Source: Bdellovibrionota bacterium
GTDB taxonomy: Bacteria; Bdellovibrionota_C; UBA2361; CALJRW01
Direction: 5' to 3'
Assembly: GCA_041740355.1 (NCBI GenBank)
Contig: JBGSMD010000048.1
Coordinates: 1 to 64,000, forward strand
Length of the DNA: 64,000 bases
Part shown: one piece after another, positions 1 through 39,045 of the stretch
How the letters are laid out: every line of letters starts with the position of its first letter
Position numbering within the stretch: the first letter of the stretch is position 1
The notes under the pieces: generated by a model
The model's input: only the letters and a program-made list of their open reading frames with translations
Told to the model about the DNA's origin: nothing
Databases searched by the model: none
Position numbers and translations under genes: made by a program

Positions 1-60
1 CGATACCAATAATTCCTTATGGCTCGCTACTTCCTTATTGATTTCTAACTTTCGGGACAC

Positions 61-4621: not shown

Positions 4622-6907
4622 TTATTTCCGAGGAGAACAAACCTCTGTGTTGCTACAGTCTTTAATTAGGCTGTTTAACTCTTTTTTACTTTGACTAACA
4701 ACATCTTGAACATAACCAGATTTAACATCACGTTTAACTTGTTTAAGATCGTAACAAGCTTTCACTTTATTTGCTAAGCTAGTTGCAAGCTTAGAAAGCT
4801 TATTCAGTTTTTTCTGATGTTTTTTTACTTCTTCGGCAAAGGATAAAGTAACACAACTATCCCCGCAAACAGTAATACCTTTGGTGAAGATAGTTAAAGC
4901 TGCCTGGTTAAGTTCTGTGATAATTGTTTTTGCTTCTTTAATCGTCTTGGCTGACTTAACTCCACATGAGTATTGAGCATCACGCTTACCATCGTCCTTG
5001 ATTCGTTTAAACAATCCCTTGGAAAGCTTTTGAAATCTCTTTTCAAAAGCCAAGATTTCTGGTGTTGGCTCCACAATGATACAATTATTTACTGAAATAC
5101 ACTGAGTTGCATCTAAAATGCTTCCACCACATACTCCACAAGCATCAGTTTGCTTATTACTAAAGCAAATATTATCGCAACCTCGATCCGAGTTATTTCC
5201 ACCACAGACCTTACATTCATCCAATGTCATTCCACTAAAGCAAACATTATCACACCCTTTTGCTTCATTCTTACCATTACAGATTCCACAATCATCAATC
5301 ACTGCCTTTCCGCCCATTACTCCATTACAATCTGGAACTGGACACTTTGTTGGATCTGTAATTCCACCACCGCAAACATTACATGAATCAATAGTTTTTC
5401 CACTATTACAAACATTGTCGCAACCTTTGCTAGCATTTTTTCCATCGCATACTCCACAGTCATCAACCACGGATTTGCCACCCATTACTCCGGCACAATC
5501 CTTCTGCTCTGCACAACGAATTTCAATCCCAGAAATATTAGCATCTCCTCCCGAAGCAGTAATATTTAAAGAACCATCAATTACATTTCTTAAGTATGGT
5601 CCATGCTTGAACCATTGACCCGAATTACCACTAGATTGGTTTTGTAAAGCATTGCTTCCTTCAATTTTTAGTGAAAAGTTATCTTTAATATTATCTTCCC
5701 ATGTCCAGACATAAATATTGTAATCATCGGGCAGGATCCCATTCACATTCATGTATAGTTCTTTATTGTTACGTGATCCATGATAGATTGAAGAACGAAG
5801 CATGCTATCCGTTCCGGGGTCACTTAGGGCAGGATTAAGTGGTACTAAATTATTAGTAAAGCTAGTTCCGCTATGGCTAAAATCAACACTACCATTATCC
5901 CAAGACTCTGTTCCAACTAGGCCTGCGACTCCAGCAGTATCTATACCTCGAATCAACTTATTTCCATCTCCAGGCAAACATGCAACTTTTAGTTGATCCT
6001 CAATGGAAATTGCAAGAAAATTCCAAACTAGAGATGCTGGATCAAGGCTAAGTCTTTTAAAATCATCTCTCGAGAAAAGCTGCGTGGAAACTGAAGTTAT
6101 ACCTGCGGGAATCACAATTGGAATATCTAATGTATCCCACTCTTGACCAGAATGACTATTAAGGCAGTCACTGCATTTTGTGGTCGTACCACCAATAGTT
6201 ACTTCAATTGAGTTTGGTCGAACTCCACCACCCGAATGACTACCCTCAACACTGGAAATTAAATAATGTAAAGTGGCACTTCTATCTTTTATGCTTGCTG
6301 GAAATGAAAGTGTTTTTGGATTTGTAGTCTTAAGCGTTCCAGGACTTTTATGATAAGCAAAATCATGTCCATCAAGTATTCCAATGCTCCCCTTAGCTGT
6401 ACCATCATCGTATATAACAATCATACCAGCACCATTACTTGCTTTGCTAAAAGTTAATCCAGAAACTGTGAAATTATTAGTTCCATTAGTTACTAAGTTA
6501 TGATTTGTTATATCAGCTCTGAAGGTTGCCGAGTAATAAGGAAAATTACCTGGGCAATTAGTTTTATCTGGGCAGATATCTCCGATCTTTTCACCTGTGA
6601 TAGTGACTTCGCTTCCACCTTGTTTTTTTAAGATAATAGTTTCATCAACTGGAGTTCCAGTTGTCATGAATCCTTGCCAATACAAAAGGACTTGTTTGAT
6701 GGTATGATTTGGCACATCAATTTTCAAATTACCCGGCTGTGTTAAAAGCCCCACCCCAGCGGTTACCATTCCTGTACCAGAAGCTACTTGAAAAGTTGCA
6801 GGGCCTAAGTTTTCATCATTTGTTTGAATTAGATAGCTACTTGGAATCCCAAGTGTAATTAACAACGCCAGACTCACAATTAATACAAATAGAATTAGTT
6901 TTTTCAT
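4622..6907 (-). CDS. Secreted multidomain protein: beta-sandwich N-terminus, malectin/CBM-like domain, Cys-rich DxCGVCxG repeats, basic Cys-containing C-terminal domain
   Basis: Signal peptide MKKLILFVLIVSLALL; DGSLNITASGGDANISGIEI; repeated DDCGVCDG/GCDNVC. Confidence 0.75.
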   Translation of the reverse strand: MKKLILFVLIVSLALLITLGIPSSYLIQTNDENLGPATFQVASGTGMVTAGVGLLTQPGNLKIDVPNHTIKQVLLYWQGFMTTGTPVDETIILKKQGGSEVTITGEKIGDICPDKTNCPGNFPYYSATFRADITNHNLVTNGTNNFTVSGLTFSKASNGAGMIVIYDDGTAKGSIGILDGHDFAYHKSPGTLKTTNPKTLSFPASIKDRSATLHYLISSVEGSHSGGGVRPNSIEVTIGGTTTKCSDCLNSHSGQEWDTLDIPIVIPAGITSVSTQLFSRDDFKRLSLDPASLVWNFLAISIEDQLKVACLPGDGNKLIRGIDTAGVAGLVGTESWDNGSVDFSHSGTSFTNNLVPLNPALSDPGTDSMLRSSIYHGSRNNKELYMNVNGILPDDYNIYVWTWEDNIKDNFSLKIEGSNALQNQSSGNSGQWFKHGPYLRNVIDGSLNITASGGDANISGIEIRCAEQKDCAGVMGGKSVVDDCGVCDGKNASKGCDNVCNSGKTIDSCNVCGGGITDPTKCPVPDCNGVMGGKAVIDDCGICNGKNEAKGCDNVCFSGMTLDECKVCGGNNSDRGCDNICFSNKQTDACGVCGGSILDATQCISVNNCIIVEPTPEILAFEKRFQKLSKGLFKRIKDDGKRDAQYSCGVKSAKTIKEAKTIITELNQAALTIFTKGITVCGDSCVTLSFAEEVKKHQKKLNKLSKLATSLANKVKACYDLKQVKRDVKSGYVQDVVSQSKKELNSLIKDCSNTEVCSPRK

Positions 6908-14118: not shown

Positions 14119-14146
14119 TTCTTATCCCCTTTAAAAAACTTATCTA

Positions 14147-14250
14147 AGATCACTATATCTAATCCTCATGAGATCGCGAATAAGATCAAAACAGATCACG
14201 GCAATAATAGATCAACTACCTAGAATCATAAGATGCTGATATCATTGATC
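14147..14250. promoter_or_regulatory. GATC cluster of the putative origin
   Basis: GATC at 14148, 14172, 14184, 14194, 14210 and 14247 (five as AGATC). Confidence 0.6.
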
Positions 14251-14287
14251 TTTTTTATTTATTGTTTGACTCTAGTTAATATACTCA

Positions 14288-14496
14288 TATCGTGATTTGA
14301 AGTAAAATACTATTTACTAGTGTTTAGAAATAAATTCTTCATGAATATCGTGCTCTTAGATAAGTAAAGATTGTGCTTGGAGATTAGTATTATCGGGAAT
14401 TGGCATAAGACTTATCGTTTTTCGAAATAATCTTTATCGTTCTTGGAAGTAAGCTTCATCGTGATTTGAAGTAAGAAATATCGTGCCTACAAATAA
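14288..14496 (+). repeat. Iteron array of a putative replication origin (nine 18-bp repeats, consensus approximately TATCGTGNTTNGAARTAA)
   Basis: Starts at 14288, 14316, 14346, 14369, 14391, 14413, 14435, 14457, 14479; last six at exact 22-bp pitch; followed by an AT-rich tract and repA. Confidence 0.85.
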
Positions 14497-14643
14497 ATAT
14501 TTTGATTTAAGTATTTAATAAGATTAAGATTCTCTACCGCTCACTTATTACAAGTAACTTAAAATAACATTTGTAAACTACTATAAAAGTTAGTAGATCT
14601 AATTTAATAAATATTAGTTTAAAAACATTTTAAATTTTCTTGA

Positions 14644-23097: not shown

Positions 23098-26000
23098 ATG
23101 CAAATTACTCCTTGTAATTCTAGGGTAAACTCGTCTGGCCCAGATTCAAATCTCAAGTCTCCGTTTTCTAGTTTAAAATTAGCTTATCATTTTGGACTAT
23201 TTCTACTTCTTAGCATTCCCCAGTTAGTTTTCGCGCAACCTTATGATGCAACTCTATCAGCAACTCCTGGAGCGGAAGGTGGATCAAATGTAATTTTTAC
23301 GGTCACACTAGATGCGATTAACTCCTCAGGATTTCCAATAACGTTTGAATTAAATCCTAATGGAGGCACCGCAAGTGCTGGAGACTTCACGGATTTTACA
23401 GCAGAGACGATTTCTATTCCAAATGGTTCTGATACAGGAACTTTTAATGTTGTGCTTAATGATGATGCTCTTTTTGAAAATACGGAGACACTTGGTGGAA
23501 TAATATCTAATCCATCAGATGGGACAGTCACAATTGTAGGAGCATCTACGGTCACTAATATTACAGACAATGATAACGGCGCAGGAACTGTTACGGCTAA
23601 TTTAAGTGTAACTGATGGGACTGAAGGTTCGACTGATGTTATTTTTACAGCGACTCTTAGTAAAACAAATAATACCGGAAGTCCTATAACTCTCAGTATT
23701 AATCCAAACGGTTTAGGAACCGCCGTTTCGGGGACAGATTATCCAGATTTTACTGGAGGGATAATTACAATTGCTGATGGTTCTGCCACAGGCACTTATC
23801 AAGTGACTCCAGCTTTAGATGGAGAGTTCGAAAATGTAGAAGATTTCGGTGCAATAATTTCTGCGCCAAGTGATCCTGCTGTAGTTGTTGGAACAGCAAC
23901 TGCCACTGGGAATATTAATGATGGCGATACTGCTAATTTAGTACTTAGCGTTACAACGCAAGGAAATGAAGCTGGGCCAGTTAGTATCGTCTACACTGCG
24001 ACACTTTCTAGCATTAACAGTAAGTCTGTTCCAATTACTGTTCAAATTAATCCAGATGGTGGAACAGCAACTGCCAGTAGTGATTATTCCAATTTCTCAG
24101 GTCGAATAATCACAATATTACCTGGAAGTAACAGTGGAACTGTTAATGTTTCTGTTGCAGATGATAATTTCTTTGAAAGTACAGAAACAGTTACTGGAAC
24201 ACTATCAGCGGTCTCCGATCCCGGTGTAACAATCACTGGCCCTTCAGCGACAGCCAATATCACTGATAACGATAATACTGCTGCTAGTGTTAACTCTCTT
24301 TTAACACTTAGTGGTTTAGGTAGCGAAGCAGGTGCTACTACCATGACTTTGACAGTTTCCTTATCCAAGAAGAACTTTACCGGAAGTCCAATTGTTTTTG
24401 ATTTGAGTCAAACCGCTGGAACAGCAACTGATGGTGCGGATTATACAGATTTAACAGGTGCAACTATCTCAGTTGCCAATGGATCAGACATTGGGACCTT
24501 CTCATTTAGTGTGGTGGATGATGCCTTATTTGAAAATGATGAAACTTTTACCATTTCACTTTCCAATCCGAGTAATCCCGCAATTAATCTATTTTCTCCA
24601 AATGCATCTGGGGTAATTGTTGATAATGATAATGTGACTGCTACAACTAATGCCGTATTAAGCGTTAATAATGGAACGGAGGGAGGATCTGATTTAATTT
24701 TCAACGTAACCTTAAGTCAAACTAATAACACGGGCGTTCCAATCACATTTGAAATATATCGGAATGGTGGATCAGCTACTGTAACCACTGATTATAGCGA
24801 TTATGCAGGATTAATTTCTGTACCGAATGGTTCAAATGTTGGAACTTTGAATGTTACTATTGTTGATGACGCTTTTTTTGAAAATTCGGAAACAGTAGCA
24901 GCTGGGATATATAATCCTTCAGATCCAGCCATTCAAATTACAGTTCCAAAAGTTACTGGAAATATTATTGATAATGATAATGTTACTATTGGGGCTGATT
25001 TAACAGCAGAAGTGAATGGAAATGAAGCTGGGAGAGTAAGCATTGTTTATCGCGTAACTTTAACAAATGCTAATAATACAGGTAGCGATATTTTCTTTGA
25101 CATTGATCCAATCGGTGGAACAGCAACTCCAGGAATTGATTATGTAGATTTTACCGGTCGAACAATCCGAGTTGGAAGTGGTAGTAGCATTGGGGAAATT
25201 TCAGTTGAAGTTACCGATGACTCATTAATTGAAAATGATCAAACAGCAGAAGCTGTAATTACTAATAGTAGCGATCCGGCTGTAACTATTGGAACAGCAA
25301 ACGCTACAGCTTCTATAATTGATAATGACAATAGTATTGGATCAATTACGGCAGACTTAGTTCGTTTAGTTGATGGACATGAGTCTGGACTGATTAATAT
25401 AATCTATCAAGTTGAGCTATCAGAAGTTAACTATACTGACTCTGCTATAACTTTTAATATTGATCCGATTGGTGGGACTGGGACTGCTGGGGTAGATTAT
25501 GTTGATTTTACAGGGGCACAAATTGTTGTTCCCTCCGGATCTCGTTTTGGACAATTTACAGTTGCCGTGCTTAATGATCCCGATTTAACTAGCGATACCG
25601 TAGTTGCCCAAATTTCTAGTCCTTCCGATACTAGTATCAATTTAGGTACTGATACAGCAACAGCTACTATTAACGATGATGATGCTCCAACTGGAACTTA
25701 CAACGCTAGTATTAGGGATGCTGTTATTCAAGGTAACGAAACTGGTGTTGTAAACGTTAGTTTTGTTGTTGAATTATCTGAACCTAACACTACTGGCTCT
25801 GCAATAACATTTGATATCAATCCATTAGTTGGTGGAACTGCAACTCTTACTTCCGATTATACCAACTTTACCGGTCAAACTGTAAGTATTCCCAACGGTG
25901 CTTCGCAAGCTACATTTAATGTGACAGTCGTTAATGATACTCTTTATGAAAGTACGGAATCACTCTTTGCAGAAATTTCCAATCCAAGTTCAGGTGCAGT

Positions 26001-29000
26001 TACGATTATTGACTCTGATGCAGTAGGGTATATTTATGACAATGATCAAATTCACTCTGCAGTAATTACTGGAACTGTTAATGGTGCTGAAGCTGGACTT
26101 GTCGCGATGGAGTACACAATCACTATTCCAGTCATTAATAACACTCAAAATCCAATCCAATTTAATATAGCTTCTGCCGGAGGTAGAGCATCTTCAGGAG
26201 TCGATTATGATTCACTAGTTAGTAGTACTATTTCTATACCAGTTGGAGCCAATTCAGTTTCATTCACTGTTGATGTATTAGATGATCTTCTATTTGAGAA
26301 TACTGAAAATGCTATAATTAGTATGTTGAATCCATCTGATCCTGGTATCTATTTGAACTTTGGAAATACCAGAGGTTCGGCTAGTATTATTGACAATGAT
26401 AACATTGGAGTTAATGCTGTTTTAGATGTCCTCCAAGATGGTTCTGAAGCAGGACCGACAAGCATGATTTATCGTGTTACATTATCAGAGCCTAATAACA
26501 CAGGTGGGACAATATTTTTTGACATTGATCCGATTGGAGGGTCTGCTCTTCCAGGGGATGCGGTTGAAAATAATGACTATATTGATTTCACAGGATCTCG
26601 AATTGGTGTTCCAAGTGGATCAAGCACGGGAACATTCTCAGTTTCAATTTCCAATGATACTCGTTTTGAAAATATTGAGACGATTGAGACTGAAATTTCA
26701 AATCCAAGCGATCCCGCCGCGGTATCAATTATTACTGCAGTTGCAACTGGAAATATTAACGATAACGATAATGCTCCAGCAGATGTTACAGCTTCGATAT
26801 CAACCTTTGGAATCGGAAATGAAGATGGACCGACATCTGTTACATTTTTAGTAACTCTTTCTAATATTAACTTTACTGACCAAGACGTAACATTTGATAT
26901 TAATCCAACAGGTGGAACTGCGACTGTCGGAAGCGATTATGTTGATTTCTCTGCAATCCAAGTTGCAATTCCTTATGGACAAGACAGAGCTCTTTACACG
27001 ATTACAGTCTTAGATGATGCGTTATTTGAAAATACGGAAACGATAGAAGCAACACTCAGCAATCCTTCTGATCCAGCAATTGATATTACCACAGCAACGG
27101 CAACAGGACTATTATTAGATAACGATAACGTTACAAATACAATTAATGCAAATCTTTCTGTTACAACTCAAGGCGAAGAAAATCTAACTAATATTGTTTA
27201 CACAGTAACCCTTGACGAAGTTAATGATACGCCATTCCCAATTGATTTCACGCTATATGTTGATGGTGGAACTGCTGTTGCTGGCACAGACTACACAAAT
27301 TTTAACGGAGTAACGATTAGTGTTCCTGTTGGATCTAACCAAGGTACCTATACAGTTAATGTTACTAACGACTTATTATTTGAAAATTTAGAAACAGCTA
27401 TTGCTGAACTTGCTAATCCTTCTGATGCTGCAATTGTAATTGGGACAGCAATTGCAACTGCAAATATTACTGATGACGATGTTACAGTTGCTAATATTGC
27501 AGTAACAACTAATGGGGATGAAGATGGTCCAGTAGATTTAGTTTATACAATAAGCATTTCTAATACTAATGGTACTGGTAGTGATATCGAAATTGATGTT
27601 GATCCAGATGGTGGCACAGCTACAATTGGATCAGATTATACAACATTTGCGGGAAGTACTGTAATTATACCAGATGGAAGTAGCTCGGTAACACTAACAG
27701 TTCCAGTGCTTGATGATTCATTATTTGAAAACACAGAAACCGTAGGTGCTGAAATCTCAAACCTATCGCATCCAAGTTTAAGTTTAGCTACAGCAACAGC
27801 CACAGGAGACATTCTTGATGATGAGAATGGAGTTGGTGCAGTAAATGCAGTTCTCTCGACAATTACTAACGGCACAGAATCAGGAACTCAAATTCGCTAT
27901 CGTGTAACTTTAGCGACTATCAACAATACTGGCTCTCCAATTACTTTTGATATTGATCCAACTGCTGGAACAGCGATTGCTAATACTGATTACACAACGT
28001 TTGCGGGTGCTACAATTACAGTTGCTAATGGTGCAAGTACTGGAGACTTATTAGTAACTGTTACTGATGATACTCTATTTGAAAATACCGAAACTGCCAC
28101 AGCAACTATTACTAACGCTAGTGATCCAGCAATTAATATTTCTACAGGCAGTGCCACAGCAAATATTATCGATAATGATAATACAGCTTCCAGCATTAGC
28201 GCAGTTCTTACTACAACTCAGAACGGCAATGAAACCGGACCAGTTGATATAAGTTTATTGTTAACAATTGGGAAAATTAACAACACCGGAGCACCGATTG
28301 TTTTTACAATTACTCCGAGTGGTGAAGCAGTTTCTGGAAGTGATTATACAGGATTAACAACGATCTCAATTCCAGATGGCTCAGATACGGGGACATTAAT
28401 TTTAACTGTAGTTGATGATCTTTTATTTGAGAATGAAGAGGATGCAACTTTCACTGTAACTGCAGCCACAGATCCAGCGATCACTACAGGTTCAAATACA
28501 ACGCCAACAATTACAGATAACGATAATACTGCGACTAGTATCACAGCAAACTTATCTAAAACAACTGATGGTTTAGAAGGAACAACAAATATTGTCTTTA
28601 CTGTTACTTTAGATAAGGTCAACAATACTCATGCACCAATCTTAATAGATATCGATCCAACAGGTGGAACAGCAATTGCTGGCACAGATTATACTAACTT
28701 TGCTGGTGCTCAGATTTCCATTCCTGATGGTTCAAGCAGTGGAACATATACTGTTATAGTTACCAACGACGCTCTATTTGAGAATACGGAAACAGTTCAA
28801 GCAACAATCACGAATCCATATGATCCTGCTGTTACTTTAGGTACAACATTAGCCACAGCAGATATTGTTGATAGCTCACCACAAGCAACTATCACTGCAA
28901 CTACTAGCGGTAATGAGACCGGACCAGTATCAATTGTTTATTCAGTTAACTTAGGCAAAACAAATGACACAGGAGCCACAATAACTTTTGATGTTGATCG

Positions 29001-32000
29001 TAATACTACTGAAGATGGATCTGCTGATGTAGGTACTGATTATACAAATTTTGATGGAACAACTGTAGATATTATTAATGGCGCCAGCTCTGCTACTGTT
29101 ACAGTTCCCGTCGATGATGATGCTTTGTTTGAGAATAACGAAACAGTTATTGCAACTCTTTCCAATGTTACAGATCCACGCGTAACAATTGCAACAGCCA
29201 ACGCTACAGGAACAATTATTGATAATGATAATCCAACTAATGGAATTCCAATAAACTTAAGTGTTACTCAAGATGGTAATGAAACTGGCCCTGTGTCGAT
29301 CATCTATACGGTTACATTAGGTACTGTAAACAATACTCATGCAGCTTTAGTTTATAATTTAAGAAGTACTGGTGGAAATGCCTCAGTTGGAACTGACTAT
29401 ACTGCACTAAATACAACAACATCGACAATCACAATTCCAGATGGTTCAAATGTTGGAACATTAACTGTTCCAGTTACAAATGATGCCTTATTTGAAAATA
29501 ATGAAACTGTTCAAGCAACCCTTACGAGACAAGCTGTCTTTGATCCCGCTGTCGCTATTGGAACTGGCGTGGCAACAGCAAATATTGTTGACAATGACAA
29601 TGGCGCAACGACTGTTAATGCCTCTTTAAGCACTGTTACTAATGGTACTGAAGCTGGAACTGCAATCCGCTACCGAGTAACTTTGGCCGTTGCTAACAAC
29701 ACGCACGCCCCAATTACTTTTGCAATTAACCCAACAAGTGGAACTGCTACTGCTGTTAGTGACTATACTTTTGGTACAACTACAATTACTGTCGCAGATG
29801 GCGCATCCACTGGGGACAAAACTGTTGCTACCGTAAATGATATACTTTTTGAAAATACAGAAACAGTTGTCTCTACAATTTCAACACCATCTGATCCAGC
29901 AATCAATATTGTAACTGCAAGTTCCAGTGCTAACATCACTGATAATGACTCGCCATCTGCTAGTATTGCAACAACAACTCAAGGGAATGAAACTGGTCCA
30001 GTGTCCATAGTTTATACTGTTAGTATTTCTAGGCAAAATGCTACAGGAGTTCCAATTACATTTAACGTAAATCCAACAGGTGGAAATGCTGATGCCACAG
30101 ATGACTATACAAATTTTGCCGCAACAGTTGCCTCAATTGCGGATGGAGCATCTTCGACAACAGTAACGGTTCCAGTTGTAGATGATTCCTTATTTGAAAA
30201 TACCGAAACAGTTCAAGCAACTATTTCTAGTCCAAGCAATGGTTCCGTGACCATTGGAACTGCTGCTGCGACTGCAAATATTACTGATAATGATAATCCT
30301 GTAAATGGAATCAATATTGATCTTGCAGTAACTCAGGATGGTAATGAAACAGGTCCAGTAAATATTATCTATACAGCTACATTAGCAACTGTAAATAATA
30401 CTCATCAACCACTTATATATAATCTTTTCCGCAGTGGTGGCAACGCATCTATGGGAACAGATTATACTAACTTAGATGCAACAACTACCACGATTTCAAT
30501 TCCTCATGGTTCAAATACTGGTACAAGAATAATTACCGTTGTAAATGATAGTCTGTTTGAAAATGATGAAACTGTTACCGCGACTATGAGTCGACAAGGT
30601 ACTTTTGATCCTGCAGTTCGCATTAATACAGCTTCTGATACAGCTGATATTATTGATAATGATAACGGAGCGGGAACAGTCGATGCAGTGTTAGATGTTC
30701 AGACTCAAGGTATTGAAGGAAGTGTCAACGTGGTATTCCGAGTAACTCTCGAGAATACAAATAACACCCATCTACCAATTAACTTTAATATAGATCCAAA
30801 TGGTGGAACAGCAATTACTGGTACTGATTATACTACTTTTGCTGGTGGAACAATTACAGTTGCCGATGGTTCTAACACTGGGACTTTAACAGTTACATTA
30901 ACTAACGATGCTCTATTTGAAAATCTAGAAACAATTATCGCCTTGATAACTAGTTCGATTGGTATTGACCCAGCTATTAACATATTAACTTCAGGTGCGA
31001 CTGCCAATATTACAGATAATGATACCACTACCGCAAATATTGCTGTTACAACTGATGGTGATGAAACTGGTCCGGTATCCGCTGTTTACACAATTAGTCT
31101 TACAAATGTTAACGGAACAGGAGTTCCAATTACAATTGATGTAAATCCAAATGGTGGAACAGCAACGGTAGCTGGGCTTGATTACACTGATTTTACTGGA
31201 AGCACAGTTAGTATTGCTGATGGTGCAAGTAGCACAACTCTCACTGTTCCAGTAGCAGACGATCTATTACTTGAAAATGATGAAACAATAATTGCTAGAA
31301 TCACTAATCCAAGTAATGGAGCTTTAACGATTGGAACTGCTAATGCTACAGCAGATTTAATTGATAATGATAATACGCCTGGAAGTGTCAATGCCGATCT
31401 AAGTGTAACCACAAATGGAGTAGAAGGTGGGGCGAATATAGTTTACCGAGTGGATATTGGTGCAACAAATAATACACATGCCCCAATAAGTTTTACAATT
31501 AACCCAACAGGAGGTGATGCCACAGCAGGTTCTGACTATACAACATTTGCCAGTGGTACAATATCAGTACCTGATGGAGCAAACTTTGGAACACTAACAG
31601 TCAACGTTACAGATGATGCACTTTTTGAGAACTTAGAAGAAGTTGAAGCAACAATTACTAGCCCTAGTGATCCAGTAATAGATATTAATACTGCAAGTGC
31701 AACAGCCAGCATCACTGATAATGATAATGGAATTACTGCTGTTGATGCCGACTTAAGTGTTACGACTCAAGGTGTCGAAGGAAGCATTAATATTGTTTAC
31801 ACAGTAACATTAGCTAATGCTAACAACACGGGAGTACCAATCACTTTTGCCTTTAATCCAACAGGTGGAACAGCAATTACCGGAACTGACTATACAGACT
31901 TTACTGGTGGAGTAATCTCAATTCCTAATGGATCAGCAACAGGCACATTCACCGTTGTTATTACAAATGATAATTTATTTGAAAATCTAGAAACAGTAAT

Positions 32001-35000
32001 TGGTACAATTAGTGCTGCGTCTGATCCAGCAATTAATATTGTTACAGCAACTGCCACCGCAGATATTACGAATGACGACACTACAACTGCGAGTATTGTT
32101 GCTACAACAGATGGGGATGAAGATGGGCCAATTTCAATTGTTTACACAGTAAGCATTTCGAACACTAACGGAACAGGTCAACCAATTACAATTGATGTTG
32201 ATCCAAATGGAGGTAACGCCACAGTTACCAGTGACTTTGCTGATTTTGCAGGAACAACAGTTACAATTCCAGATGGTTCAAGCTCTGATACAGTAACAGT
32301 TGTAGTTGTTGATGACGCAATCCTAGAACATTTAGAAACAGTAGAAGCTACAATCTCTAACTTAAGTGATGGAGATTTAAGCATTGCAACTGCAAGTGCC
32401 ACAGCTGATATCGTGGATAATGATGATGCCGTTGGTGCTGTCAATGCTGACTTAACTGTTACAACGCAAGGGGTAGAGGGTGGAACAAACATTGTTTATA
32501 CAGTCACTCTTGCTAATGTTAATGGAACTCATAGTCCGATCACCTTTGATATTAATCCATCAGGTGGAACTGCTATCGATGGAACAGATTACACGACATT
32601 TATTAATGGATTAGTTTCAATTGCTGATGGGGCAAGTACAGGCACATATACTGTATTTGTTACTAACGATACGCTATTTGAAAACTTAGAAACTCTGGAA
32701 TCTACAATTAGTAATGTTTCAGATACTTCCGTTAATATTAATACAGCAAGTGCTACTGCAAATATCACTGATAATGATAACGCGGTTGGAAGTATTGACG
32801 CTGACTTATCTGTAACTACTCAAGGTGTCGAAGGAAGTATTAATGTTGTTTACACAGTAACTCTAGGAACAGTAAATAATACAGGTGGACCAATTACATT
32901 TGCCTTTAATCCATCAGGTGGAACAGCAATTGCTGGGACTGATTATACAGACTTTACTGGAGGAGTAATTACAATTCTAGATGGTGAAAGCACAGGAACA
33001 TACACTGTAGTAATTACTGATGATAGTTTGTTTGAAGATTTGGAAACAATAATTGGTACAATTTCAGCGGCTTCCGATCCAGCGATAAATATAGCTACTG
33101 CTTCTGCCACAGCTGATATTAGTAACGATGACACAACTACTGCCAGCATCTCTGCCACAATAAATGGTAATGAAACCGGACCGATCTCAATTGTTTACAC
33201 TGTAACGTTAACAAATGAGAATGGAACAGGAACTGCAATTACCTTTGAAGTCAATCCGAATGGTGGAACCGCTATTGCCGGGATTGACTATACTGACTTT
33301 ACTGCTGGTAGTGTAAGTATTGCCGATGGTGATACAACGGGAACACTAACAGTTCCAGTTGTTGACGATAATATTCTAGAAAATCTAGAAACAGCGATTG
33401 CTGAAATTTCTAATCCAAGTAACGGAGCAATCACAATTGCTACAGCTAGTGATACTGCGGATATCCTTGATAATGATAACGTAGCTGGCACTGTAGATGC
33501 TGATTTATCTGTAACGACTCAAGGTGTCGAAGGTGGATTTAATATCGTTTACACAATAACTCTTGCAAATCCAAATGGAACTGGCGCTCCTCTTACCTTT
33601 AGTATCAATCCAACAGGTGGAACAGCAACTATTACTGATGACTTTACTGACTTTACTGGAGGAACAATTAGCGTTGCAGATGGTGCAAGTACTGGAACAT
33701 TCACGGTCTTTGTTGCCAACGATACATTATTTGAAAATTTAGAAACAGTTGAAGCTACTGTTAGTAGTCCATCAGATCCTGCTATTAATCTTAATACTCC
33801 AACAGCTACAGCTAATATTACAGATAATGATAACGTTGTCGGAAGTATTGATGCTGATCTAAGTGTCACAACGCAAGGTGTGGAAGGAAGTGTGAATGTT
33901 GTTTACACAGTAACATTAGGCACAGTTAATAATACTGGTGGACCAATTACTTTTGCATTTAACCCGACAGGTGGAACAGCAATAACTGGAACTGATTACA
34001 CTGACTTTACTAATGGTGTAATAACAATTCTGGATGGGGAAAGTACAGGGACCTATACAGTAGTAATTACTGATGATAGTTTGTTTGAAAATCTAGAAAC
34101 AATAATTGGTACAATCACTGCAGCTTCTGATGCAGCTATTAATATTGTAACTGCTAGTGCTACAGCAGATATTACAAATGACGACACTACTACTGCTAGT
34201 ATCGTTGCAACTACAAATGGTGATGAAGATGGACCAGTATCAATTGTTTATACAGTAAGCATTTCTAATCCTAACGGTACAGGTCAACCAATTACAATTG
34301 ATGTTGATCCAAGTGGAGGAAATGCTACAGCCGGTACTGATTATACTGATTTTGCCGGAGCTTCTGTCTCAATTGCCGACGGAGAAAGTTCCGATACGAT
34401 AACGTTAGTTGTTGATGATGATGCCATTCTAGAACATTTGGAAACGGTTGAAGCAACAATTTCTAACTTAAGCGATGGAGATTTAAGTATTGCGACTGCC
34501 AGTGCTACTGCTGATATTCTAGACAATGATGACGCTGCAGGTTCTGTTGATGCCGATTTATCTGTTACAACTCAAGGTGTTGAAGGTGGAACAAACATTC
34601 TTTACACAGTAACTCTTGCCAATGTTAACGGAACTCATACTCCAATTACATTTGATATTAATCCAACAGGTGGAACAGCAACTGATGGTTCTGATTATAC
34701 GACATTTAGTAATGGCCTAATTACAATTGCTGATGGTGCAAGCACTGGAACGTATACAGTATTTGTTACAGATGATTCACTGTTTGAAAATTTAGAGACA
34801 TTAGAATCTACTATTAGTAATGCTTCTGATGCATCAATTAATATTAATACAGCAAGTGCCACTGCCGATATTACCGATAATGATAATGGTGCTGGAACAA
34901 TTAATGCCAGTTTAGCAATTACAACTAATGGTAGTGAAAATAATCTGGGAAGTGTAACTGATATTGTAGTTACACTAACTTTAGCAACAATTAACAATAC

Positions 35001-38000
35001 TGGTGCTGATATTACTTTTGACTTGGATTTAAATAATGGCACAGCTACTGCTTGGCAAGATTTTAATGTTAGTGGTGCCGGTTTTGCTACTGTTGTAGTT
35101 CCAAATGGATCAAACACTGCAACTATTATAATCCCAGTGATTGAAGATTCTAATAACGAAGGAACTGAAGACCTAGATGTAGTGATTTTTAATCCATCCG
35201 ATACAGCGATCAATATAGTAACTGGCACAGTTACACCATTTATTGTTGATGATGAGGCTAATAATTGTGGATCTGGCACGCTTGATTTATTTGAACAATG
35301 TGATGACAGTAATACTGATAATGCTGATGGCTGTGACAGCTTCTGCCAAATTGAAACTGGATACACTTGTGAAGGCGAACCAAGCGTTTGTCATGAAACT
35401 TGTGGTAATGGTGTTATTACTGGAAGAGAAACTTGTGATGATGGTAATGAAGTAGATGGAGATGGATGTTCTGATATCTGTCGCATTGAAACAGGCTTTA
35501 GTTGTTTTGGTGATACAAGTCTTTGTGCCAGCGGTTGTGGTAATGGAACAGTTGCTGGGTTGGAAGAATGTGACGATGCCGATAATGTCGATGGCGATGG
35601 CTGCTCAGCAACATGTACACTAGAACCTGTTTGGTCATGTAGTGGCGCAGCACCAAGTATTTGTACTAATACTTGTGGAGATAGCACGCTTGATGCTGGT
35701 GAAGCTTGCGACGATGGTAATGTCACCGAAGGTGATGGCTGTACGGCAAGTTGTGTAATTGAAACTGCCTATAGTTGTACAGGGACTCCTAGTACTTGTA
35801 GCTCAACTTGTGGCGATGCTGAAATTGCTTCTGATGAACAGTGTGATGATGGCAATACCACAACTGGAGATGGTTGTGATGCTAGTTGTTCAATTGAATC
35901 TACATTTACATGTGTTGGTGTGCCTAGTATTTGTTTAGCAACATGCGGTAACAATATTATTACTGATGGCGAAGTTTGTGATGATGGAAATCTAGTTAAT
36001 GGTGATGGCTGTTCTAATACTTGTGAAATTGAAATTGGATCAAGTTGTGTAGGGGAACCAAGTGCTTGTACAGCTACTTGTGGTGATAACACAGTTGACG
36101 TTGGTGAAGCTTGTGATGATGGAGATAATACTAACTTTGATGGTTGTAGTGAAGTTTGCCAAATTGAAATTGGTTATGAGTGTAACGGTAATCCAAGTGG
36201 CTGCTTAGCAACTTGTGGTAACGGCACAATGGAAGGTGGCGAATCTTGTGATGATAAAAATTTCGTAAATGGTGATGGTTGTTCCGCAGCTTGCCGTGTT
36301 GAGGTTGGATTCTCTTGCTTAGGAGAACCTAGTACTTGTGATACAAGTTGTGGTGATGGAATTATTACAGGAACTGAAACATGCGATGATAGTAATGGCA
36401 TCGGAGGCGATGGTTGTTCCGCAACATGTCAGATTGAAGATACTTTTGCTTGTACTGGTGAGCCAAGTAGCTGTTTAGCAACATGTAGTAATGGAACAAT
36501 TGATGCCGGTGAAGCTTGTGATGACGGTAATGCGACTAATGGCGATGGTTGCTCGGCAATTTGTGAAGTTGAAACAGGAGAAAGTTGTTTAAATACATCA
36601 GGTGAGCCAAGTCTTTGCTATACAGCATGTGGTAATGGAACGATTGATGCCTTTGAACAATGTGATGATAGTAACAATACTAGTGATGATGGTTGTTCTG
36701 CAAGTTGCCTAATTGAGATCGGATATGTTTGTACTGGCACGCCAAGCGCATGTGTAGCAACTTGTGGAAATGGACATATTGCCTCACAAGAAGCTTGTGA
36801 TGATGCTAACCAAGTAAGTGGAGACGGTTGTAGCAATGTCTGTCTAAACGAAGTTAATGCGACACTTAGCTTTGACCAAAATGGCACAGAAGCTGGACCA
36901 GATGCCGTGGAATTCTTGGTCACGTTAGATACTGCAAATGCTACGGGCGCAAATCTCAATTTCTTGATTAAGGAAAATGGTGGAGTCGCTAGCACTGGGG
37001 TTGATTACACTGGATTTAATAATCAGATTGTAACTGTCGCCAGTGGAGCAACAACAGGAACATTATCTGTTCCGGTAATTGATGACCTATTATTTGAAAA
37101 CTCAGAAAGTGTTGATGTCCTGCTTAAAGATACTTCACACCCAGCAGTTCTAATTGGTACGGATACTGCTACTGGTGATATTATTGATAATGATAATGTG
37201 ATTACTGCCACTCTTGCTGGAATCACGAATGGTAATGAAACTGGCCCAGTTAATGCTGTCTTCCAAGTAACATTATCAGCAATTAATAATACTGGCTCGC
37301 CAATAACATTTGTTTTAAATCCAAATGGAGGTACGGCAACATTAGGTGATGATTATGCTGATTTCACTGGAACGATAGTAACAATTCCAATTGGAAGTGA
37401 TACTGCAACATTCACTGTGATCATTAATAATGATGCTTTCTTAGAAGCCACTACGGAAACATTAATTGCTGCATTATCGACTTCTAGTGATTCAAGTGTG
37501 ACAATTGGAACTAGTACGGCCTCAATTACTATCAGTGATGATGAAGCCTTGTTAGATGATGATTTTGATACAATTCCTAACTATGTGGAATGTCCAACAG
37601 GTATTCCATGCGTGAATACAGATGGCGATCCAAATCCAAACTATTTAGATACAGATTCTGATAATGATGGTATTCTTGATGATCATGAAACTGTTACTGA
37701 CACAGATGGTGACAATATTCCTAACTACATTGATGAAGATTCTGATAATGATGGTATTAAGGATGAAAACGAAAAGGAAACAGATTTTGATGGAGACTTA
37801 ATTCCAAATTATCTTGATTTAGATTCTGATGGCGATTCAATTCCTGATGCCGAAGAAGGTGATAGCGATCAAGATGGTGATGGACAGCCAAATTATCTAG
37901 ATCTTGATTCCGATAATGATGGAGTAACTGACACTCTAGAAAAAGGGAACACTAACGATGGTGATGGAATTCCTGATTATCTAGATATTGATGCTGATAA

Positions 38001-39045
38001 CGATGGTATTACTGACATTATTGAAGCTGGTGGTGTTGATACAGATCAAGACGGAACAGTTGATGGTTTTGTTGATGCTGACCAAGATGGATTGAGTGAT
38101 AATATTGCAATTACTTCATTAGCAATTCCTGATACCGATGGAGATGGATTACCTGATATGCTAGACATTGATGCTGATGGTGATGGAATTAATGATAATA
38201 TTGAAGGACAAGTTAGCATTGGCTACATAGATCCTTCTGGACTTGATGCTAACAGTAATGGATTAGATGATGCTTACGATGCACTAGTTGGAGGCTTTTA
38301 CATTATACCAGTAGATACTGATAGCGATGGCGATCCAGATTATCAAGATCTTGATTCCGATGGTGATGGATTAAGTGATTACATTGAAGCTTATGATTCT
38401 GATTATGACTTCATCGCCGATGTCCTACCACTTGGTGTTGATAGTGATAACGACGGGTTGGATGATGGATTTGATACCTTTGATCGATCACTTAGTACTA
38501 ATTGGGTAGCTAACCTTCGTGGTTCTAACATCATTTTAAATGATTTGAACTTCGATGGGACTCCTGACTTCCGTGAATTCTGTTCAGGTAGTGATTGTGG
38601 TGGCTGTGAAGAAATATCACCAACTAAGAAAGTTAAGAAGAAAGCTAAGAATGCCAATAATGCAGCAAGTATTCTGCATAACCGAACAATTAGTTTTTCT
38701 CAGCGTGCCGAAGCCTGTGGCTCTCCAGACCTAAGTAAGTCAAGAGTTAAATCTAAGGAGCTTTTAGCACAGTTTAGGGATTTAGTTAATGCGAGCTTCA
38801 AAGATACTAAGCTAGATTGTGCACAGAATGATTGCCTAAATCAATCAAGTAAATCTGTAACTAATAAGCTAAATAGAATTGCTACGCGTTTATTTAAAAT
38901 CGCTAAGAAATCTAAGCTGGAATACATTGATTATTGCAAACCTGTTCACGATCCTAATGACACTCGGAAGAGATCGGAAGATTACTTGGATGATTTAAAT
39001 GCGGCAATTAAAGCATTGCCAAAAAGTCATTTGGTTTGTGATTAA
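23098..39045 (+). CDS. Giant 5315-aa surface protein/adhesin: about 35 Calx-beta-like domains, 12 Myxococcus-type Cys-rich repeats, Asp-rich TSP3-like repeats, basic C-terminal domain
   Basis: Signal-like segment ending VFAQ; GGTAT.G.DY...DD.LFEN.ET repeats; CGNG...E.CDDGN...GDGCS..C repeats; D.DGDG.PNYLD.DSD repeats. Confidence 0.9.
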   Translation: MQITPCNSRVNSSGPDSNLKSPFSSLKLAYHFGLFLLLSIPQLVFAQPYDATLSATPGAEGGSNVIFTVTLDAINSSGFPITFELNPNGGTASAGDFTDFTAETISIPNGSDTGTFNVVLNDDALFENTETLGGIISNPSDGTVTIVGASTVTNITDNDNGAGTVTANLSVTDGTEGSTDVIFTATLSKTNNTGSPITLSINPNGLGTAVSGTDYPDFTGGIITIADGSATGTYQVTPALDGEFENVEDFGAIISAPSDPAVVVGTATATGNINDGDTANLVLSVTTQGNEAGPVSIVYTATLSSINSKSVPITVQINPDGGTATASSDYSNFSGRIITILPGSNSGTVNVSVADDNFFESTETVTGTLSAVSDPGVTITGPSATANITDNDNTAASVNSLLTLSGLGSEAGATTMTLTVSLSKKNFTGSPIVFDLSQTAGTATDGADYTDLTGATISVANGSDIGTFSFSVVDDALFENDETFTISLSNPSNPAINLFSPNASGVIVDNDNVTATTNAVLSVNNGTEGGSDLIFNVTLSQTNNTGVPITFEIYRNGGSATVTTDYSDYAGLISVPNGSNVGTLNVTIVDDAFFENSETVAAGIYNPSDPAIQITVPKVTGNIIDNDNVTIGADLTAEVNGNEAGRVSIVYRVTLTNANNTGSDIFFDIDPIGGTATPGIDYVDFTGRTIRVGSGSSIGEISVEVTDDSLIENDQTAEAVITNSSDPAVTIGTANATASIIDNDNSIGSITADLVRLVDGHESGLINIIYQVELSEVNYTDSAITFNIDPIGGTGTAGVDYVDFTGAQIVVPSGSRFGQFTVAVLNDPDLTSDTVVAQISSPSDTSINLGTDTATATINDDDAPTGTYNASIRDAVIQGNETGVVNVSFVVELSEPNTTGSAITFDINPLVGGTATLTSDYTNFTGQTVSIPNGASQATFNVTVVNDTLYESTESLFAEISNPSSGAVTIIDSDAVGYIYDNDQIHSAVITGTVNGAEAGLVAMEYTITIPVINNTQNPIQFNIASAGGRASSGVDYDSLVSSTISIPVGANSVSFTVDVLDDLLFENTENAIISMLNPSDPGIYLNFGNTRGSASIIDNDNIGVNAVLDVLQDGSEAGPTSMIYRVTLSEPNNTGGTIFFDIDPIGGSALPGDAVENNDYIDFTGSRIGVPSGSSTGTFSVSISNDTRFENIETIETEISNPSDPAAVSIITAVATGNINDNDNAPADVTASISTFGIGNEDGPTSVTFLVTLSNINFTDQDVTFDINPTGGTATVGSDYVDFSAIQVAIPYGQDRALYTITVLDDALFENTETIEATLSNPSDPAIDITTATATGLLLDNDNVTNTINANLSVTTQGEENLTNIVYTVTLDEVNDTPFPIDFTLYVDGGTAVAGTDYTNFNGVTISVPVGSNQGTYTVNVTNDLLFENLETAIAELANPSDAAIVIGTAIATANITDDDVTVANIAVTTNGDEDGPVDLVYTISISNTNGTGSDIEIDVDPDGGTATIGSDYTTFAGSTVIIPDGSSSVTLTVPVLDDSLFENTETVGAEISNLSHPSLSLATATATGDILDDENGVGAVNAVLSTITNGTESGTQIRYRVTLATINNTGSPITFDIDPTAGTAIANTDYTTFAGATITVANGASTGDLLVTVTDDTLFENTETATATITNASDPAINISTGSATANIIDNDNTASSISAVLTTTQNGNETGPVDISLLLTIGKINNTGAPIVFTITPSGEAVSGSDYTGLTTISIPDGSDTGTLILTVVDDLLFENEEDATFTVTAATDPAITTGSNTTPTITDNDNTATSITANLSKTTDGLEGTTNIVFTVTLDKVNNTHAPILIDIDPTGGTAIAGTDYTNFAGAQISIPDGSSSGTYTVIVTNDALFENTETVQATITNPYDPAVTLGTTLATADIVDSSPQATITATTSGNETGPVSIVYSVNLGKTNDTGATITFDVDRNTTEDGSADVGTDYTNFDGTTVDIINGASSATVTVPVDDDALFENNETVIATLSNVTDPRVTIATANATGTIIDNDNPTNGIPINLSVTQDGNETGPVSIIYTVTLGTVNNTHAALVYNLRSTGGNASVGTDYTALNTTTSTITIPDGSNVGTLTVPVTNDALFENNETVQATLTRQAVFDPAVAIGTGVATANIVDNDNGATTVNASLSTVTNGTEAGTAIRYRVTLAVANNTHAPITFAINPTSGTATAVSDYTFGTTTITVADGASTGDKTVATVNDILFENTETVVSTISTPSDPAINIVTASSSANITDNDSPSASIATTTQGNETGPVSIVYTVSISRQNATGVPITFNVNPTGGNADATDDYTNFAATVASIADGASSTTVTVPVVDDSLFENTETVQATISSPSNGSVTIGTAAATANITDNDNPVNGINIDLAVTQDGNETGPVNIIYTATLATVNNTHQPLIYNLFRSGGNASMGTDYTNLDATTTTISIPHGSNTGTRIITVVNDSLFENDETVTATMSRQGTFDPAVRINTASDTADIIDNDNGAGTVDAVLDVQTQGIEGSVNVVFRVTLENTNNTHLPINFNIDPNGGTAITGTDYTTFAGGTITVADGSNTGTLTVTLTNDALFENLETIIALITSSIGIDPAINILTSGATANITDNDTTTANIAVTTDGDETGPVSAVYTISLTNVNGTGVPITIDVNPNGGTATVAGLDYTDFTGSTVSIADGASSTTLTVPVADDLLLENDETIIARITNPSNGALTIGTANATADLIDNDNTPGSVNADLSVTTNGVEGGANIVYRVDIGATNNTHAPISFTINPTGGDATAGSDYTTFASGTISVPDGANFGTLTVNVTDDALFENLEEVEATITSPSDPVIDINTASATASITDNDNGITAVDADLSVTTQGVEGSINIVYTVTLANANNTGVPITFAFNPTGGTAITGTDYTDFTGGVISIPNGSATGTFTVVITNDNLFENLETVIGTISAASDPAINIVTATATADITNDDTTTASIVATTDGDEDGPISIVYTVSISNTNGTGQPITIDVDPNGGNATVTSDFADFAGTTVTIPDGSSSDTVTVVVVDDAILEHLETVEATISNLSDGDLSIATASATADIVDNDDAVGAVNADLTVTTQGVEGGTNIVYTVTLANVNGTHSPITFDINPSGGTAIDGTDYTTFINGLVSIADGASTGTYTVFVTNDTLFENLETLESTISNVSDTSVNINTASATANITDNDNAVGSIDADLSVTTQGVEGSINVVYTVTLGTVNNTGGPITFAFNPSGGTAIAGTDYTDFTGGVITILDGESTGTYTVVITDDSLFEDLETIIGTISAASDPAINIATASATADISNDDTTTASISATINGNETGPISIVYTVTLTNENGTGTAITFEVNPNGGTAIAGIDYTDFTAGSVSIADGDTTGTLTVPVVDDNILENLETAIAEISNPSNGAITIATASDTADILDNDNVAGTVDADLSVTTQGVEGGFNIVYTITLANPNGTGAPLTFSINPTGGTATITDDFTDFTGGTISVADGASTGTFTVFVANDTLFENLETVEATVSSPSDPAINLNTPTATANITDNDNVVGSIDADLSVTTQGVEGSVNVVYTVTLGTVNNTGGPITFAFNPTGGTAITGTDYTDFTNGVITILDGESTGTYTVVITDDSLFENLETIIGTITAASDAAINIVTASATADITNDDTTTASIVATTNGDEDGPVSIVYTVSISNPNGTGQPITIDVDPSGGNATAGTDYTDFAGASVSIADGESSDTITLVVDDDAILEHLETVEATISNLSDGDLSIATASATADILDNDDAAGSVDADLSVTTQGVEGGTNILYTVTLANVNGTHTPITFDINPTGGTATDGSDYTTFSNGLITIADGASTGTYTVFVTDDSLFENLETLESTISNASDASININTASATADITDNDNGAGTINASLAITTNGSENNLGSVTDIVVTLTLATINNTGADITFDLDLNNGTATAWQDFNVSGAGFATVVVPNGSNTATIIIPVIEDSNNEGTEDLDVVIFNPSDTAINIVTGTVTPFIVDDEANNCGSGTLDLFEQCDDSNTDNADGCDSFCQIETGYTCEGEPSVCHETCGNGVITGRETCDDGNEVDGDGCSDICRIETGFSCFGDTSLCASGCGNGTVAGLEECDDADNVDGDGCSATCTLEPVWSCSGAAPSICTNTCGDSTLDAGEACDDGNVTEGDGCTASCVIETAYSCTGTPSTCSSTCGDAEIASDEQCDDGNTTTGDGCDASCSIESTFTCVGVPSICLATCGNNIITDGEVCDDGNLVNGDGCSNTCEIEIGSSCVGEPSACTATCGDNTVDVGEACDDGDNTNFDGCSEVCQIEIGYECNGNPSGCLATCGNGTMEGGESCDDKNFVNGDGCSAACRVEVGFSCLGEPSTCDTSCGDGIITGTETCDDSNGIGGDGCSATCQIEDTFACTGEPSSCLATCSNGTIDAGEACDDGNATNGDGCSAICEVETGESCLNTSGEPSLCYTACGNGTIDAFEQCDDSNNTSDDGCSASCLIEIGYVCTGTPSACVATCGNGHIASQEACDDANQVSGDGCSNVCLNEVNATLSFDQNGTEAGPDAVEFLVTLDTANATGANLNFLIKENGGVASTGVDYTGFNNQIVTVASGATTGTLSVPVIDDLLFENSESVDVLLKDTSHPAVLIGTDTATGDIIDNDNVITATLAGITNGNETGPVNAVFQVTLSAINNTGSPITFVLNPNGGTATLGDDYADFTGTIVTIPIGSDTATFTVIINNDAFLEATTETLIAALSTSSDSSVTIGTSTASITISDDEALLDDDFDTIPNYVECPTGIPCVNTDGDPNPNYLDTDSDNDGILDDHETVTDTDGDNIPNYIDEDSDNDGIKDENEKETDFDGDLIPNYLDLDSDGDSIPDAEEGDSDQDGDGQPNYLDLDSDNDGVTDTLEKGNTNDGDGIPDYLDIDADNDGITDIIEAGGVDTDQDGTVDGFVDADQDGLSDNIAITSLAIPDTDGDGLPDMLDIDADGDGINDNIEGQVSIGYIDPSGLDANSNGLDDAYDALVGGFYIIPVDTDSDGDPDYQDLDSDGDGLSDYIEAYDSDYDFIADVLPLGVDSDNDGLDDGFDTFDRSLSTNWVANLRGSNIILNDLNFDGTPDFREFCSGSDCGGCEEISPTKKVKKKAKNANNAASILHNRTISFSQRAEACGSPDLSKSRVKSKELLAQFRDLVNASFKDTKLDCAQNDCLNQSSKSVTNKLNRIATRLFKIAKKSKLEYIDYCKPVHDPNDTRKRSEDYLDDLNAAIKALPKSHLVCD
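31015..34900 (+). repeat. Higher-order repeat of about 1053 bp (three Calx-beta domains per unit)
   Basis: (N/D)DTTT anchors at about 31015, 32071, 33124 and 34177. Confidence 0.75.
35266..36850 (+). repeat. Twelve ~45-aa Myxococcus cysteine-rich (DUF4215-like) repeats, the last partial
   Basis: CG(N/D)...E.CDD.N....DGC...C.IE.G..C.G.PS.C units. Confidence 0.9.

Follow-up and report, generated by a model that had tools for sequence, protein, structure and literature searches.

Substrates of the type IX secretion system (T9SS) carry C-terminal domains (CTDs) that are beta-sandwiches of about 80-100 residues without conserved disulfides, and the PEP-CTERM, MYXO-CTERM and GlyGly-CTERM tags consist of a short motif, a transmembrane helix and a basic cluster; MYXO-CTERM reportedly directs proteins to the surface through the type II secretion system (T2SS; Sah, Cao and Wall 2020, as cited in PMC10433427). 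Terminal folded modules can also hold large surface proteins on the outer membrane with neither a lipid nor a beta-barrel anchor, as do the helical lipopolysaccharide (LPS)-binding anchor of Caulobacter RsaA and the LapA-type retention module. Here we describe a CTD found on an exported protein of 761 amino acids (aa) encoded in a 64,000-nucleotide stretch of an uncultured Bdellovibrionota genome (positions 1 to 64,000 of contig JBGSMD010000048.1; the whole stretch is referred to as the window), and again on a 5315-aa protein and probably a 616-aa protein in the same window. The domain appears to represent an undescribed C-terminal superfamily of about 150 aa that is essentially confined to one order of the Bdellovibrionota. 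With a probability that we put at roughly 45%, it is a Sec-exported, disulfide-locked basic bundle that brings adhesin-like proteins to the cell surface or holds them there.

The CTD resembles the T9SS domains of the Bacteroidota (Por secretion) in being a folded domain at the extreme C terminus of many unrelated Sec-exported surface proteins, in being lineage-restricted and weakly conserved, and in that the substrates lie away from any machinery. It differs in its predicted structure, a basic four-helix bundle of 150 aa with two or three disulfides, in its occurrence in another phylum, and in that no machinery has been identified. The model is helical with just four 3-residue strands and not a beta-sandwich, and none of the Pfam and NCBIfam models for Por secretion tails or T9SS CTDs matched the three proteins or sets of 13 and 23 aligned tails. 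Like the CTERM tags, the CTD stands at the C terminus of exported proteins, often behind Cys-rich acidic repeats (TIGR02232/DUF4215); unlike them, the tails are amphipathic and charged, contain no hydrophobic helix, are predicted to be globular over 150 aa, and end in a Cys followed by 0-8 residues. NCBIfam models of the CTERM type gave no match. There was also no Pfam match to the translocator of autotransporters (type V secretion system), the predicted fold being helical and not a C-terminal beta-barrel. Substrates of the type I secretion system (T1SS) with RTX repeats lack a Sec signal and have an unstructured C-terminal signal after the repeats, whereas here signal-like N termini accompany a structured, Cys-rich C terminus, and the RTX family is absent from the Pfam output of the 5315-aa protein. 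The RsaA anchor and the LapA retention module, with which the CTD can be compared by description only, are N-terminal and belong to T1SS substrates, whereas the CTD is C-terminal and belongs to Sec-type Cys-rich proteins.

The features of the three proteins in the window are listed here, where A3 and A5 denote the profiles of tails with six and four Cys residues, respectively.

4622..6907, minus strand: whole gene of the 761-aa exported protein (ORF and translation)
6842..6907, minus strand: signal-peptide-like N-terminal segment of the 761-aa protein, about aa 1-22 (read from the translation)
5084..5515, minus strand: CGVCxG-type Cys-rich repeats of the 761-aa protein, aa 465-608, abutting the CTD upstream (translation; A5 profile motif matches at 479-584)
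4625..5083, minus strand: CTD of the 761-aa protein, aa 609-761, 6(+1)-Cys subtype (Cys positions, AlphaFold2, profile matches, charge)
23098..39045, plus strand: 5315-aa adhesin-like protein (Pfam scan and N terminus)
38605..39042, plus strand: CTD of the 5315-aa giant adhesin, aa 5170-5315, 6-Cys subtype (Cys pattern; A3 profile, E 4e-41)
48115-49965, minus strand: 616-aa protein (ORF)
48118..48693, minus strand: tail of the 616-aa protein, aa 425-616, probable divergent 4-Cys member (hmmsearch and hhalign)

The Cys residues of the 761-aa protein lie at 609, 648, 681, 685, 718, 751 and 757, with spacings of 38, 32, 3, 32, 32 and 5 and 4 residues beyond the last. This is the arrangement reported in the first-pass annotation of the window, in which the final C-x38-C and an extra Cys correspond to 718 to 757. 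The tail, predicted to form four helices and four short strands, has a net charge of +14 over the last 150 aa, and that of the passenger is -18. No Pfam family was matched by the passenger in a Pfam scan; the CGVCxG-type motif that precedes the CTD here also stands ahead of it in most family members. The 761-aa protein scores 5.8e-4 with the A5 profile and 1.2e-37 with A3, the latter trivially as it is already in that alignment. The 5315-aa protein runs from a signal-like N terminus through some 20 Calx-beta stretches, LapA domains, DUF4215 Cys repeats and TSP3-like repeats to the CTD (net charge +10 for the tail, -683 for the passenger). Its translation ends in C-x36-C-x33-C-x4-C-x33-C-x33-C plus 1 residue, just as had been annotated. 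All three proteins begin with hydrophobic signal-like segments, in agreement with the export signals proposed for them; signal-like N termini, here and below, were judged by eye from the translations without a signal-peptide predictor.

Pairwise methods do not reveal a relationship among the three tails. BLASTP gave no significant link (best E 0.20), phmmer at E <= 10 returned only self matches and a full-length paralogue of the 616-aa protein, and MAFFT could not align the three tails by themselves. A bare regular expression for the Cys pattern is likewise unspecific, as just 3 of its 14 near-C-terminal matches in 4983 ORFs are members. Each tail was used to search 40 relatives in six frames. 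The 761-aa type has matches in 11 of these, and all 12 recovered tails follow the pattern C-38/39(43)-C-32/34-C-3-C-32-C-30..34-C-2/5-C, with the stop 1-7 residues after the last Cys (alignment A1). The 5315-aa type is found in eight relatives with the pattern C-32/36-C-33/35-C-4-C-33-C-29..36-C followed by 1-4 residues, the exception being one locus with masked letters (alignment A2). A third type, reached through a Cys-pattern match in the window's own genome, is far commoner. It has four Cys residues arranged as C-x70-C-x4/5-C-x67-C followed by 1-3 residues (alignment A5), with a CGVCxGDGxSC motif upstream, a conserved Trp and a VP...S.C end, and by itself matches 29 of the 40 relatives with up to 12 matches per genome.

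Comparison of these alignments provides the link. The A1 profile ranks the 5315-aa protein top among its non-self matches, yet at E 0.25, and it is hhalign that connects the two types (94.7%, E 5.7e-8, 150 columns). As scores of this size might stem from the upstream Cys motif, the alignments were cut to begin after the first Cys of the domain and controls with reversed columns were added. Trimmed A1 and A2 still match (83.2%, E 8.8e-6; reversed control E 0.11). A small trimmed 4-Cys alignment is only weakly linked to A1 (6.6%, E 0.0055) and A2 (23.6%, E 8.6e-4), suggesting that an earlier untrimmed 4-Cys score of 96.5% leaned partly on the CGVC motif. Larger trimmed sets, with 49 4-Cys tails from fetched loci and 110 6-Cys tails from a search of representatives, match at 96.0% (E 4.7e-9, 105 columns; reversed control E 0.04) over a region that takes in the last part of helix 2, the hairpin with its Cys pair, helices 3 and 4 and the Cys at the C terminus. 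The A3 profile also picks up known 4-Cys loci directly, with E of 1e-6 to 1e-7 per genome, and all six Cys columns are invariant in the 23 aligned 6-Cys tails. Values for single sequences need care, as the reversed-profile control for C51:4526-7732 gave a spurious 20% (E 0.0011, 24 columns). We conclude from these profile comparisons that the 4-Cys and 6-Cys tails can be regarded as one superfamily, with a widespread 4-Cys form and a 6-Cys form carrying an extra Cys pair. The 5315-aa protein is assigned to it by its match to the 6-Cys profile and is absent from the A5 match list.

The position of the 616-aa protein is less certain. Its four Cys residues, arranged as C425-x70-C496-x5-C502-x107-C610 plus 6 residues, retain C1, C3 and C4, and a C-terminal extension of roughly 45 aa displaces the last. 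Its tail type matches the 4-Cys profile by hhalign (81.4%, E 1.2e-5, 96 columns; reversed control E 0.043), and hmmsearch with the A5 profile places it in register at E 0.007-0.015; there is no match to the 6-Cys profile (hhalign 1.0%). It is confined to its own genus among the relatives searched. The tails had been described as basic, which is true of the 761-aa and 5315-aa copies but not of the 616-aa type, with net charges of +3 and -4. An AlphaFold2 model from four close sequences is uninformative (predicted local distance difference test score, pLDDT, 47). As the tail is non-basic and its model uninformative, this third copy is a probable and not a certain one: the four Cys residues of the variant noted in the first-pass annotation are present, and by sequence the tail is probably a divergent member of the CTD superfamily.

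The restriction of the domain to the C terminus, which the annotators had expected of a profile search, is borne out on a large scale. A search of 1.84 billion representatives with the 6-Cys profile yields 211 clusters at E <= 0.001, and the match ends 0-9 aa before the stop in 146 of the 149 best of these, the other three being partial matches. In 161/161 tails, no more than 0-8 aa separate the last Cys from the C terminus. No protein carries two copies (0/52, 0/11 and 0/143), and no stand-alone secreted CTD was found, since the short matches lack signal peptides and seem to come from truncated gene calls. The CTD is net positive in 53/53 tails of one set (median +10) and 84/84 of another (median +17), and the passengers are net negative in 53/53 and 78/84; by comparison, the charge of the last 150 aa across 1282 ORFs of the same genome has its median at 0 and its 95th percentile at +11. 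Passengers that can be recognised are adhesin- or surface-like, with Calx-beta, LapA, TSP3, Big_13, Ca_tandemer, VWA, DUF11, SdrD_B and Ice_binding-like domains: a 1729-aa member has Big_13, Big_6 and Ca_tandemer, and VWA, DUF11, SdrD_B, Ice_binding-like domains and a PAAR motif occur elsewhere in the family, with poly-Thr/Pro linkers present among members. A signal-like N terminus was seen in all 11 candidates from the window's own genome.

The disulfide-linked helical bundle that had been anticipated for the tails is what structure prediction returns, although the disulfides themselves come from indirect arguments. AlphaFold2 on a 23-sequence alignment gives a four-helix bundle with a small sheet at a pLDDT of 90.1 and a predicted template-modelling score (pTM) of 0.80. 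In the model the helices span 8-37, 44-67, 83-114 and 125-142, with four 3-residue strands beside Cys 1, 73/77 and 143/149. The predicted bundle is of the up-down type, so that the N terminus, central hairpin and C terminus converge at one end, and Cys 40 (in the loop between helices 1 and 2) and Cys 110 (where helix 3 ends) are found at the opposite end. The second and fifth Cys occur together in 111 of 161 tails and are jointly missing from 49, with only one of the two present in the remaining 1, which fits a C2-C5 disulfide, although these counts come mostly from two clades and are not independent events. The C3-x3-6-C4 hairpin is in place in 158/161. A disulfide map with two bonds in the 4-Cys form and three in the 6-Cys form, where C2-C5 would join two pairs in the small sheet, can be inferred from the model. 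The genome encodes a VKOR-type oxidase, which we count in favour of this picture of the fold and its disulfides.

Searches with the model found no close structural relative. Foldseek against the Protein Data Bank (PDB) gave nothing at E <= 0.001, and VIA-align found generic helical bundles only, the best having Z scores of 9.0 and 9.9, below the bar of roughly 13 for helical bundles. A comparable arrangement, a four-helix bundle (FHB) at the C terminus of a secreted multidomain protein, is found in the secreted GH92 mannosidase NnGH92 (PDB 7nsn). In the report on that enzyme (PMC10167667) no function is assigned to the FHB, deleting it removed about 50% of the binding to yeast cell-wall extract, and 2rld is listed among its structural neighbours; 2rld is also a weak match of the CTD model (Foldseek E 0.26; Z 7.4). 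Unlike the CTD, the NnGH92 FHB is about 90 aa long and of Gram-positive origin, and 7nsn is not among the Foldseek and VIA-align matches listed for the CTD model, which are generic bundles.

The domain is also missing from the family databases, consistent with the first impression that it matched no recognised family. On the tails, all Pfam and NCBIfam models stay below their cut-offs, and no Pfam family is matched by more than one tail in the sets of 13 and 23 aligned tails. Among 77 full-length representatives, 12 match some Pfam family at E <= 1e-4, and in none of the 12 does the best stretch fall in the tail; the source names are just 'hypothetical protein' or 'putative metal-binding motif-containing protein'. 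The A3 profile has no match among PDB sequences, and the ESM Atlas gave no usable match. The best PDB sequence match of the A5 profile is to influenza hemagglutinin HA2 (E 0.006, 18.6 bits), with profile positions 23-122 aligned to HA2 residues 36-95/132 through a shared Q..(I/L)DG and a Trp-containing stretch. We reject this likeness as chance because no member matches the hemagglutinin Pfam family, no Pfam family occurs in more than one member, and HA2 is absent from the fold lists. Nor did searches of the openly accessible literature on Bdellovibrio C-terminal, adhesin, sorting or helical-bundle domains turn up a description of it. The metal ion-dependent adhesion site (MIDAS) adhesin Bd0875, considered as a characterised member, was set aside, as the protein described (PMC11003981) is a small lipoprotein without such a tail.

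The distribution was determined in 124 genomes of the phylum, including 90 relatives of the same order and 33 genomes from outside it.

4-Cys profile (A5): same order 81/90; outside 2/33
6-Cys profile (A3): same order 57/90; outside 2/33
Either profile: same order 87/90; outside 3/33

These figures, together with the profile links, uphold the central proposal of one lineage-restricted domain on otherwise different exported proteins. The relatives belong to the Bdellovibrionales/Bdellovibrionota, and the 4-Cys profile alone has about 350 six-frame matches in the 124 genomes, with up to 16 in one genome. Strong 6-Cys matches occur in the large genus g10 of the order. In its scope the proposal needs revision: the 6-Cys form is real but is the minority version of a mainly 4-Cys family, and the genome of the window holds at least 8 members rather than three.

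What the CTD does can be approached from its placement, since a module that is the only one shared by these proteins, and is fixed at their very end, most likely serves to localise them at the cell surface or retain them there. In the scheme that we favour, the protein would be exported by Sec, as the N-terminal signal-like segments suggest, and once in the periplasm the tail would take up a compact fold, an up-down four-helix bundle in which the two ends and the central C-x3-6-C hairpin are predicted to join in a small beta-sheet. This fold would be locked by disulfides, of which the 4-Cys form would have two and the 6-Cys form three, the additional pair joining the loop between helices 1 and 2 to the end of helix 3, as the topology and the paired gain and loss of these Cys residues indicate. 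The single-copy, strongly basic CTD at the extreme C terminus, which appears to be the sole module common to many unrelated acidic adhesin-like passengers, would then dock as a rigid polycationic bundle on an anionic envelope component or an outer-membrane partner, with the passenger facing outward. The genome has two secretin genes, so that folded proteins could in principle cross the outer membrane.

Several observations weigh against this scheme. In the window's own genome (3.27 Mb in 74 contigs, completeness 97%) there is no Pfam-model match for DsbB, nor for the T2SS pseudopilin T2SSK, for which the control was unspecific. Outside the Cys residues almost nothing is conserved across the subtypes, so that there is no obvious shared docking surface for a single receptor. 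A neighbourhood set of 50 loci (40 from relatives, nine from the same genome and the window; 703 ORFs, 53 of them CTD genes) contains no conserved neighbour gene family; the commonest, which is histidine-kinase-like, occurs at 7/50 loci, and the ATPases of T2SS/type IV pilus (T4P) type that flank two members in the window's genome recur at just 3/50 loci, in 2 genomes. CTD genes are themselves at times clustered, with two per locus in 5 of the 40 relatives' loci. Finally, lipid A of Bdellovibrio bacteriovorus is reported to have mannose in place of phosphate (reviewed in PMC13689555), which if shared by the lineage makes simple electrostatic binding of the CTD to the producer's own lipid A less likely.

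A more specific version, which we regard as a tentative possibility, is that the CTD is the address label of an unrecognised sorting or attachment pathway present throughout the order and read by dedicated outer-membrane machinery, and so comparable to T9SS CTDs and the sortase-type CTERM tags in function and not in structure. Should this be true, all the adhesins and contact proteins of these mostly predatory bacteria would bear the label, amounting to about 4 or more proteins per genome.

The reportedly phosphate-free lipid A favours instead a role for the CTD in binding prey or other ligands, in which a polycationic bundle at the distal end of the adhesin would stick to anionic prey LPS or other surfaces and another part of the protein would keep it on the producer. 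As lipid A of B. bacteriovorus would in this respect be unlike that of the usual Gram-negative (PMC13689555), a cationic module would prefer prey envelopes. The uniformly strong basicity of the CTD, its occurrence in the Bdellovibrionales/Bdellovibrionota and its fast divergence outside the Cys residues, as in an exposed binding surface, all point the same way. We nevertheless consider this unlikely, because the signal peptides of most members are of the ordinary cleavable kind and these proteins share no further module able to act as an anchor, because binding modules are seldom limited to one copy at the extreme C terminus, and because a predatory lifestyle is not established for this uncultured genome.

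That the CTD is purely an export signal, a folded tag read by an outer-membrane translocon (T2SS-like or other) and then removed as T9SS CTDs are, seems to us more doubtful still. The module is strictly terminal and single-copy, its substrates are scattered through the genome without linked machinery as in the T9SS and CTERM systems, secretins are present, and two members adjoin the T2SS/T4P-type ATPase genes; however, that neighbourhood is not kept in relatives, the search for machinery gave no candidate, the subtype alignments show no conserved cleavage motif where passenger and CTD meet, and 150 aa with three disulfides would be an expensive tag to throw away.

It is improbable that the bundle dimerises or oligomerises so as to gather adhesin stalks together, or that it only stabilises repeat arrays at their C-terminal end. 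Pairing is common among four-helix bundles, the CTD always stands behind Cys-knot or repeat arrays, and the seventh Cys of the 761-aa protein could be free for an intermolecular bond, but AlphaFold2 gives a closed monomeric bundle, the high positive charge disfavours self-association, and a cap need be neither so basic nor so lineage-specific. Hardly credible is a chance resemblance, with Cys spacings coinciding in low-complexity Lys-rich helical tails of separate ancestry, which would suit the failure of BLASTP, phmmer and MAFFT to join the three tails and the unrelated ORFs matched by the simple Cys pattern, but is already contradicted for the 761-aa and 5315-aa copies by profile-profile scores far above the reversed controls, by the invariant Cys columns, by matching clusters that are always at the terminus, and by the direct recovery of 4-Cys loci with the A3 profile.

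If the CTD does sort or anchor proteins at the cell surface, as in the scheme that we prefer, the surface adhesin set of a whole order, including the giant 5315-aa type, could be defined from sequence alone, providing a handle on how these bacteria display the proteins that contact prey or surfaces. The domain would then also offer a compact, portable display tag, and a helical, disulfide-locked type would join the few C-terminal sorting domains known in Gram-negative bacteria. Irrespective of function, a well-defined family with hundreds of matches is missing from Pfam and NCBIfam.

The members that the A5 profile recovers in the genome of the window, in which the window itself is contig C48, are as follows; the 616-aa pair is likewise marginal.

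C61:2468-4201: strong 4-Cys member
C9:108205-109503: strong 4-Cys member
C56:28088-29359: strong 4-Cys member
C16:165478-166851: strong 4-Cys member
C30:153296-158485: intermediate member
C51:4526-7732: intermediate member
C30:170988-172760: marginal member

Some of these genes have features of their own. The product of C51:4526-7732 (L064:4526-7729) is a 1068-aa exported protein that combines a PAAR motif and CarboxypepD_reg with a basic CTD; surface proteins of the Sec type do not usually carry a PAAR motif. The C16 gene (L061:8479-9849) encodes an Ice_binding-like domain, a DUF4215 repeat and a 4-Cys CTD, with two T2SS/T4P-type ATPase genes 2-5 kb away. Adjoining a CTD gene on C61 is one for a 1148-aa protein with 18 DUF4215 Cys-rich repeats and a weak Vint/Hint match near its C terminus (C61:6008-9454; L058:6011-9454). 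A motif (A/G)L(T/S)(I/L)DxFxGxG recurs right behind the signal peptide in P0008, P0012, P0025, P0044, P0059 and others, as well as in C61:2468-4201 and C56:28088-29359, which suggests that a large subset may share a second, unannotated domain at the N-terminal end of the passenger.

The window, with a GC content of about 36%, contains other loci of note. Amid housekeeping genes at 12486-16140 are genes for ParB (12486-13337, minus strand), ParA (13330-14118, minus strand) and a member of the Replication-initiator-protein-A family (14644-16140, plus strand), which by their families make up a putative plasmid- or chromid-like replicon module on this 87.9-kb contig. At 618-1893, a HipA_C kinase gene (943-1893) overlaps a small upstream ORF (618-950) and the two are likely to be a toxin-antitoxin pair of the HipBA type. 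A 630-aa fusion of FixO and cytochrome c adjoins a 434-aa ORF with a sub-threshold COX1 match only (40001-43561), and at 57928-61436 the gene for a 776-aa Sel1-repeat protein lies immediately upstream of one for a DUF4407 protein, after which come two ORFs that match no Pfam family.

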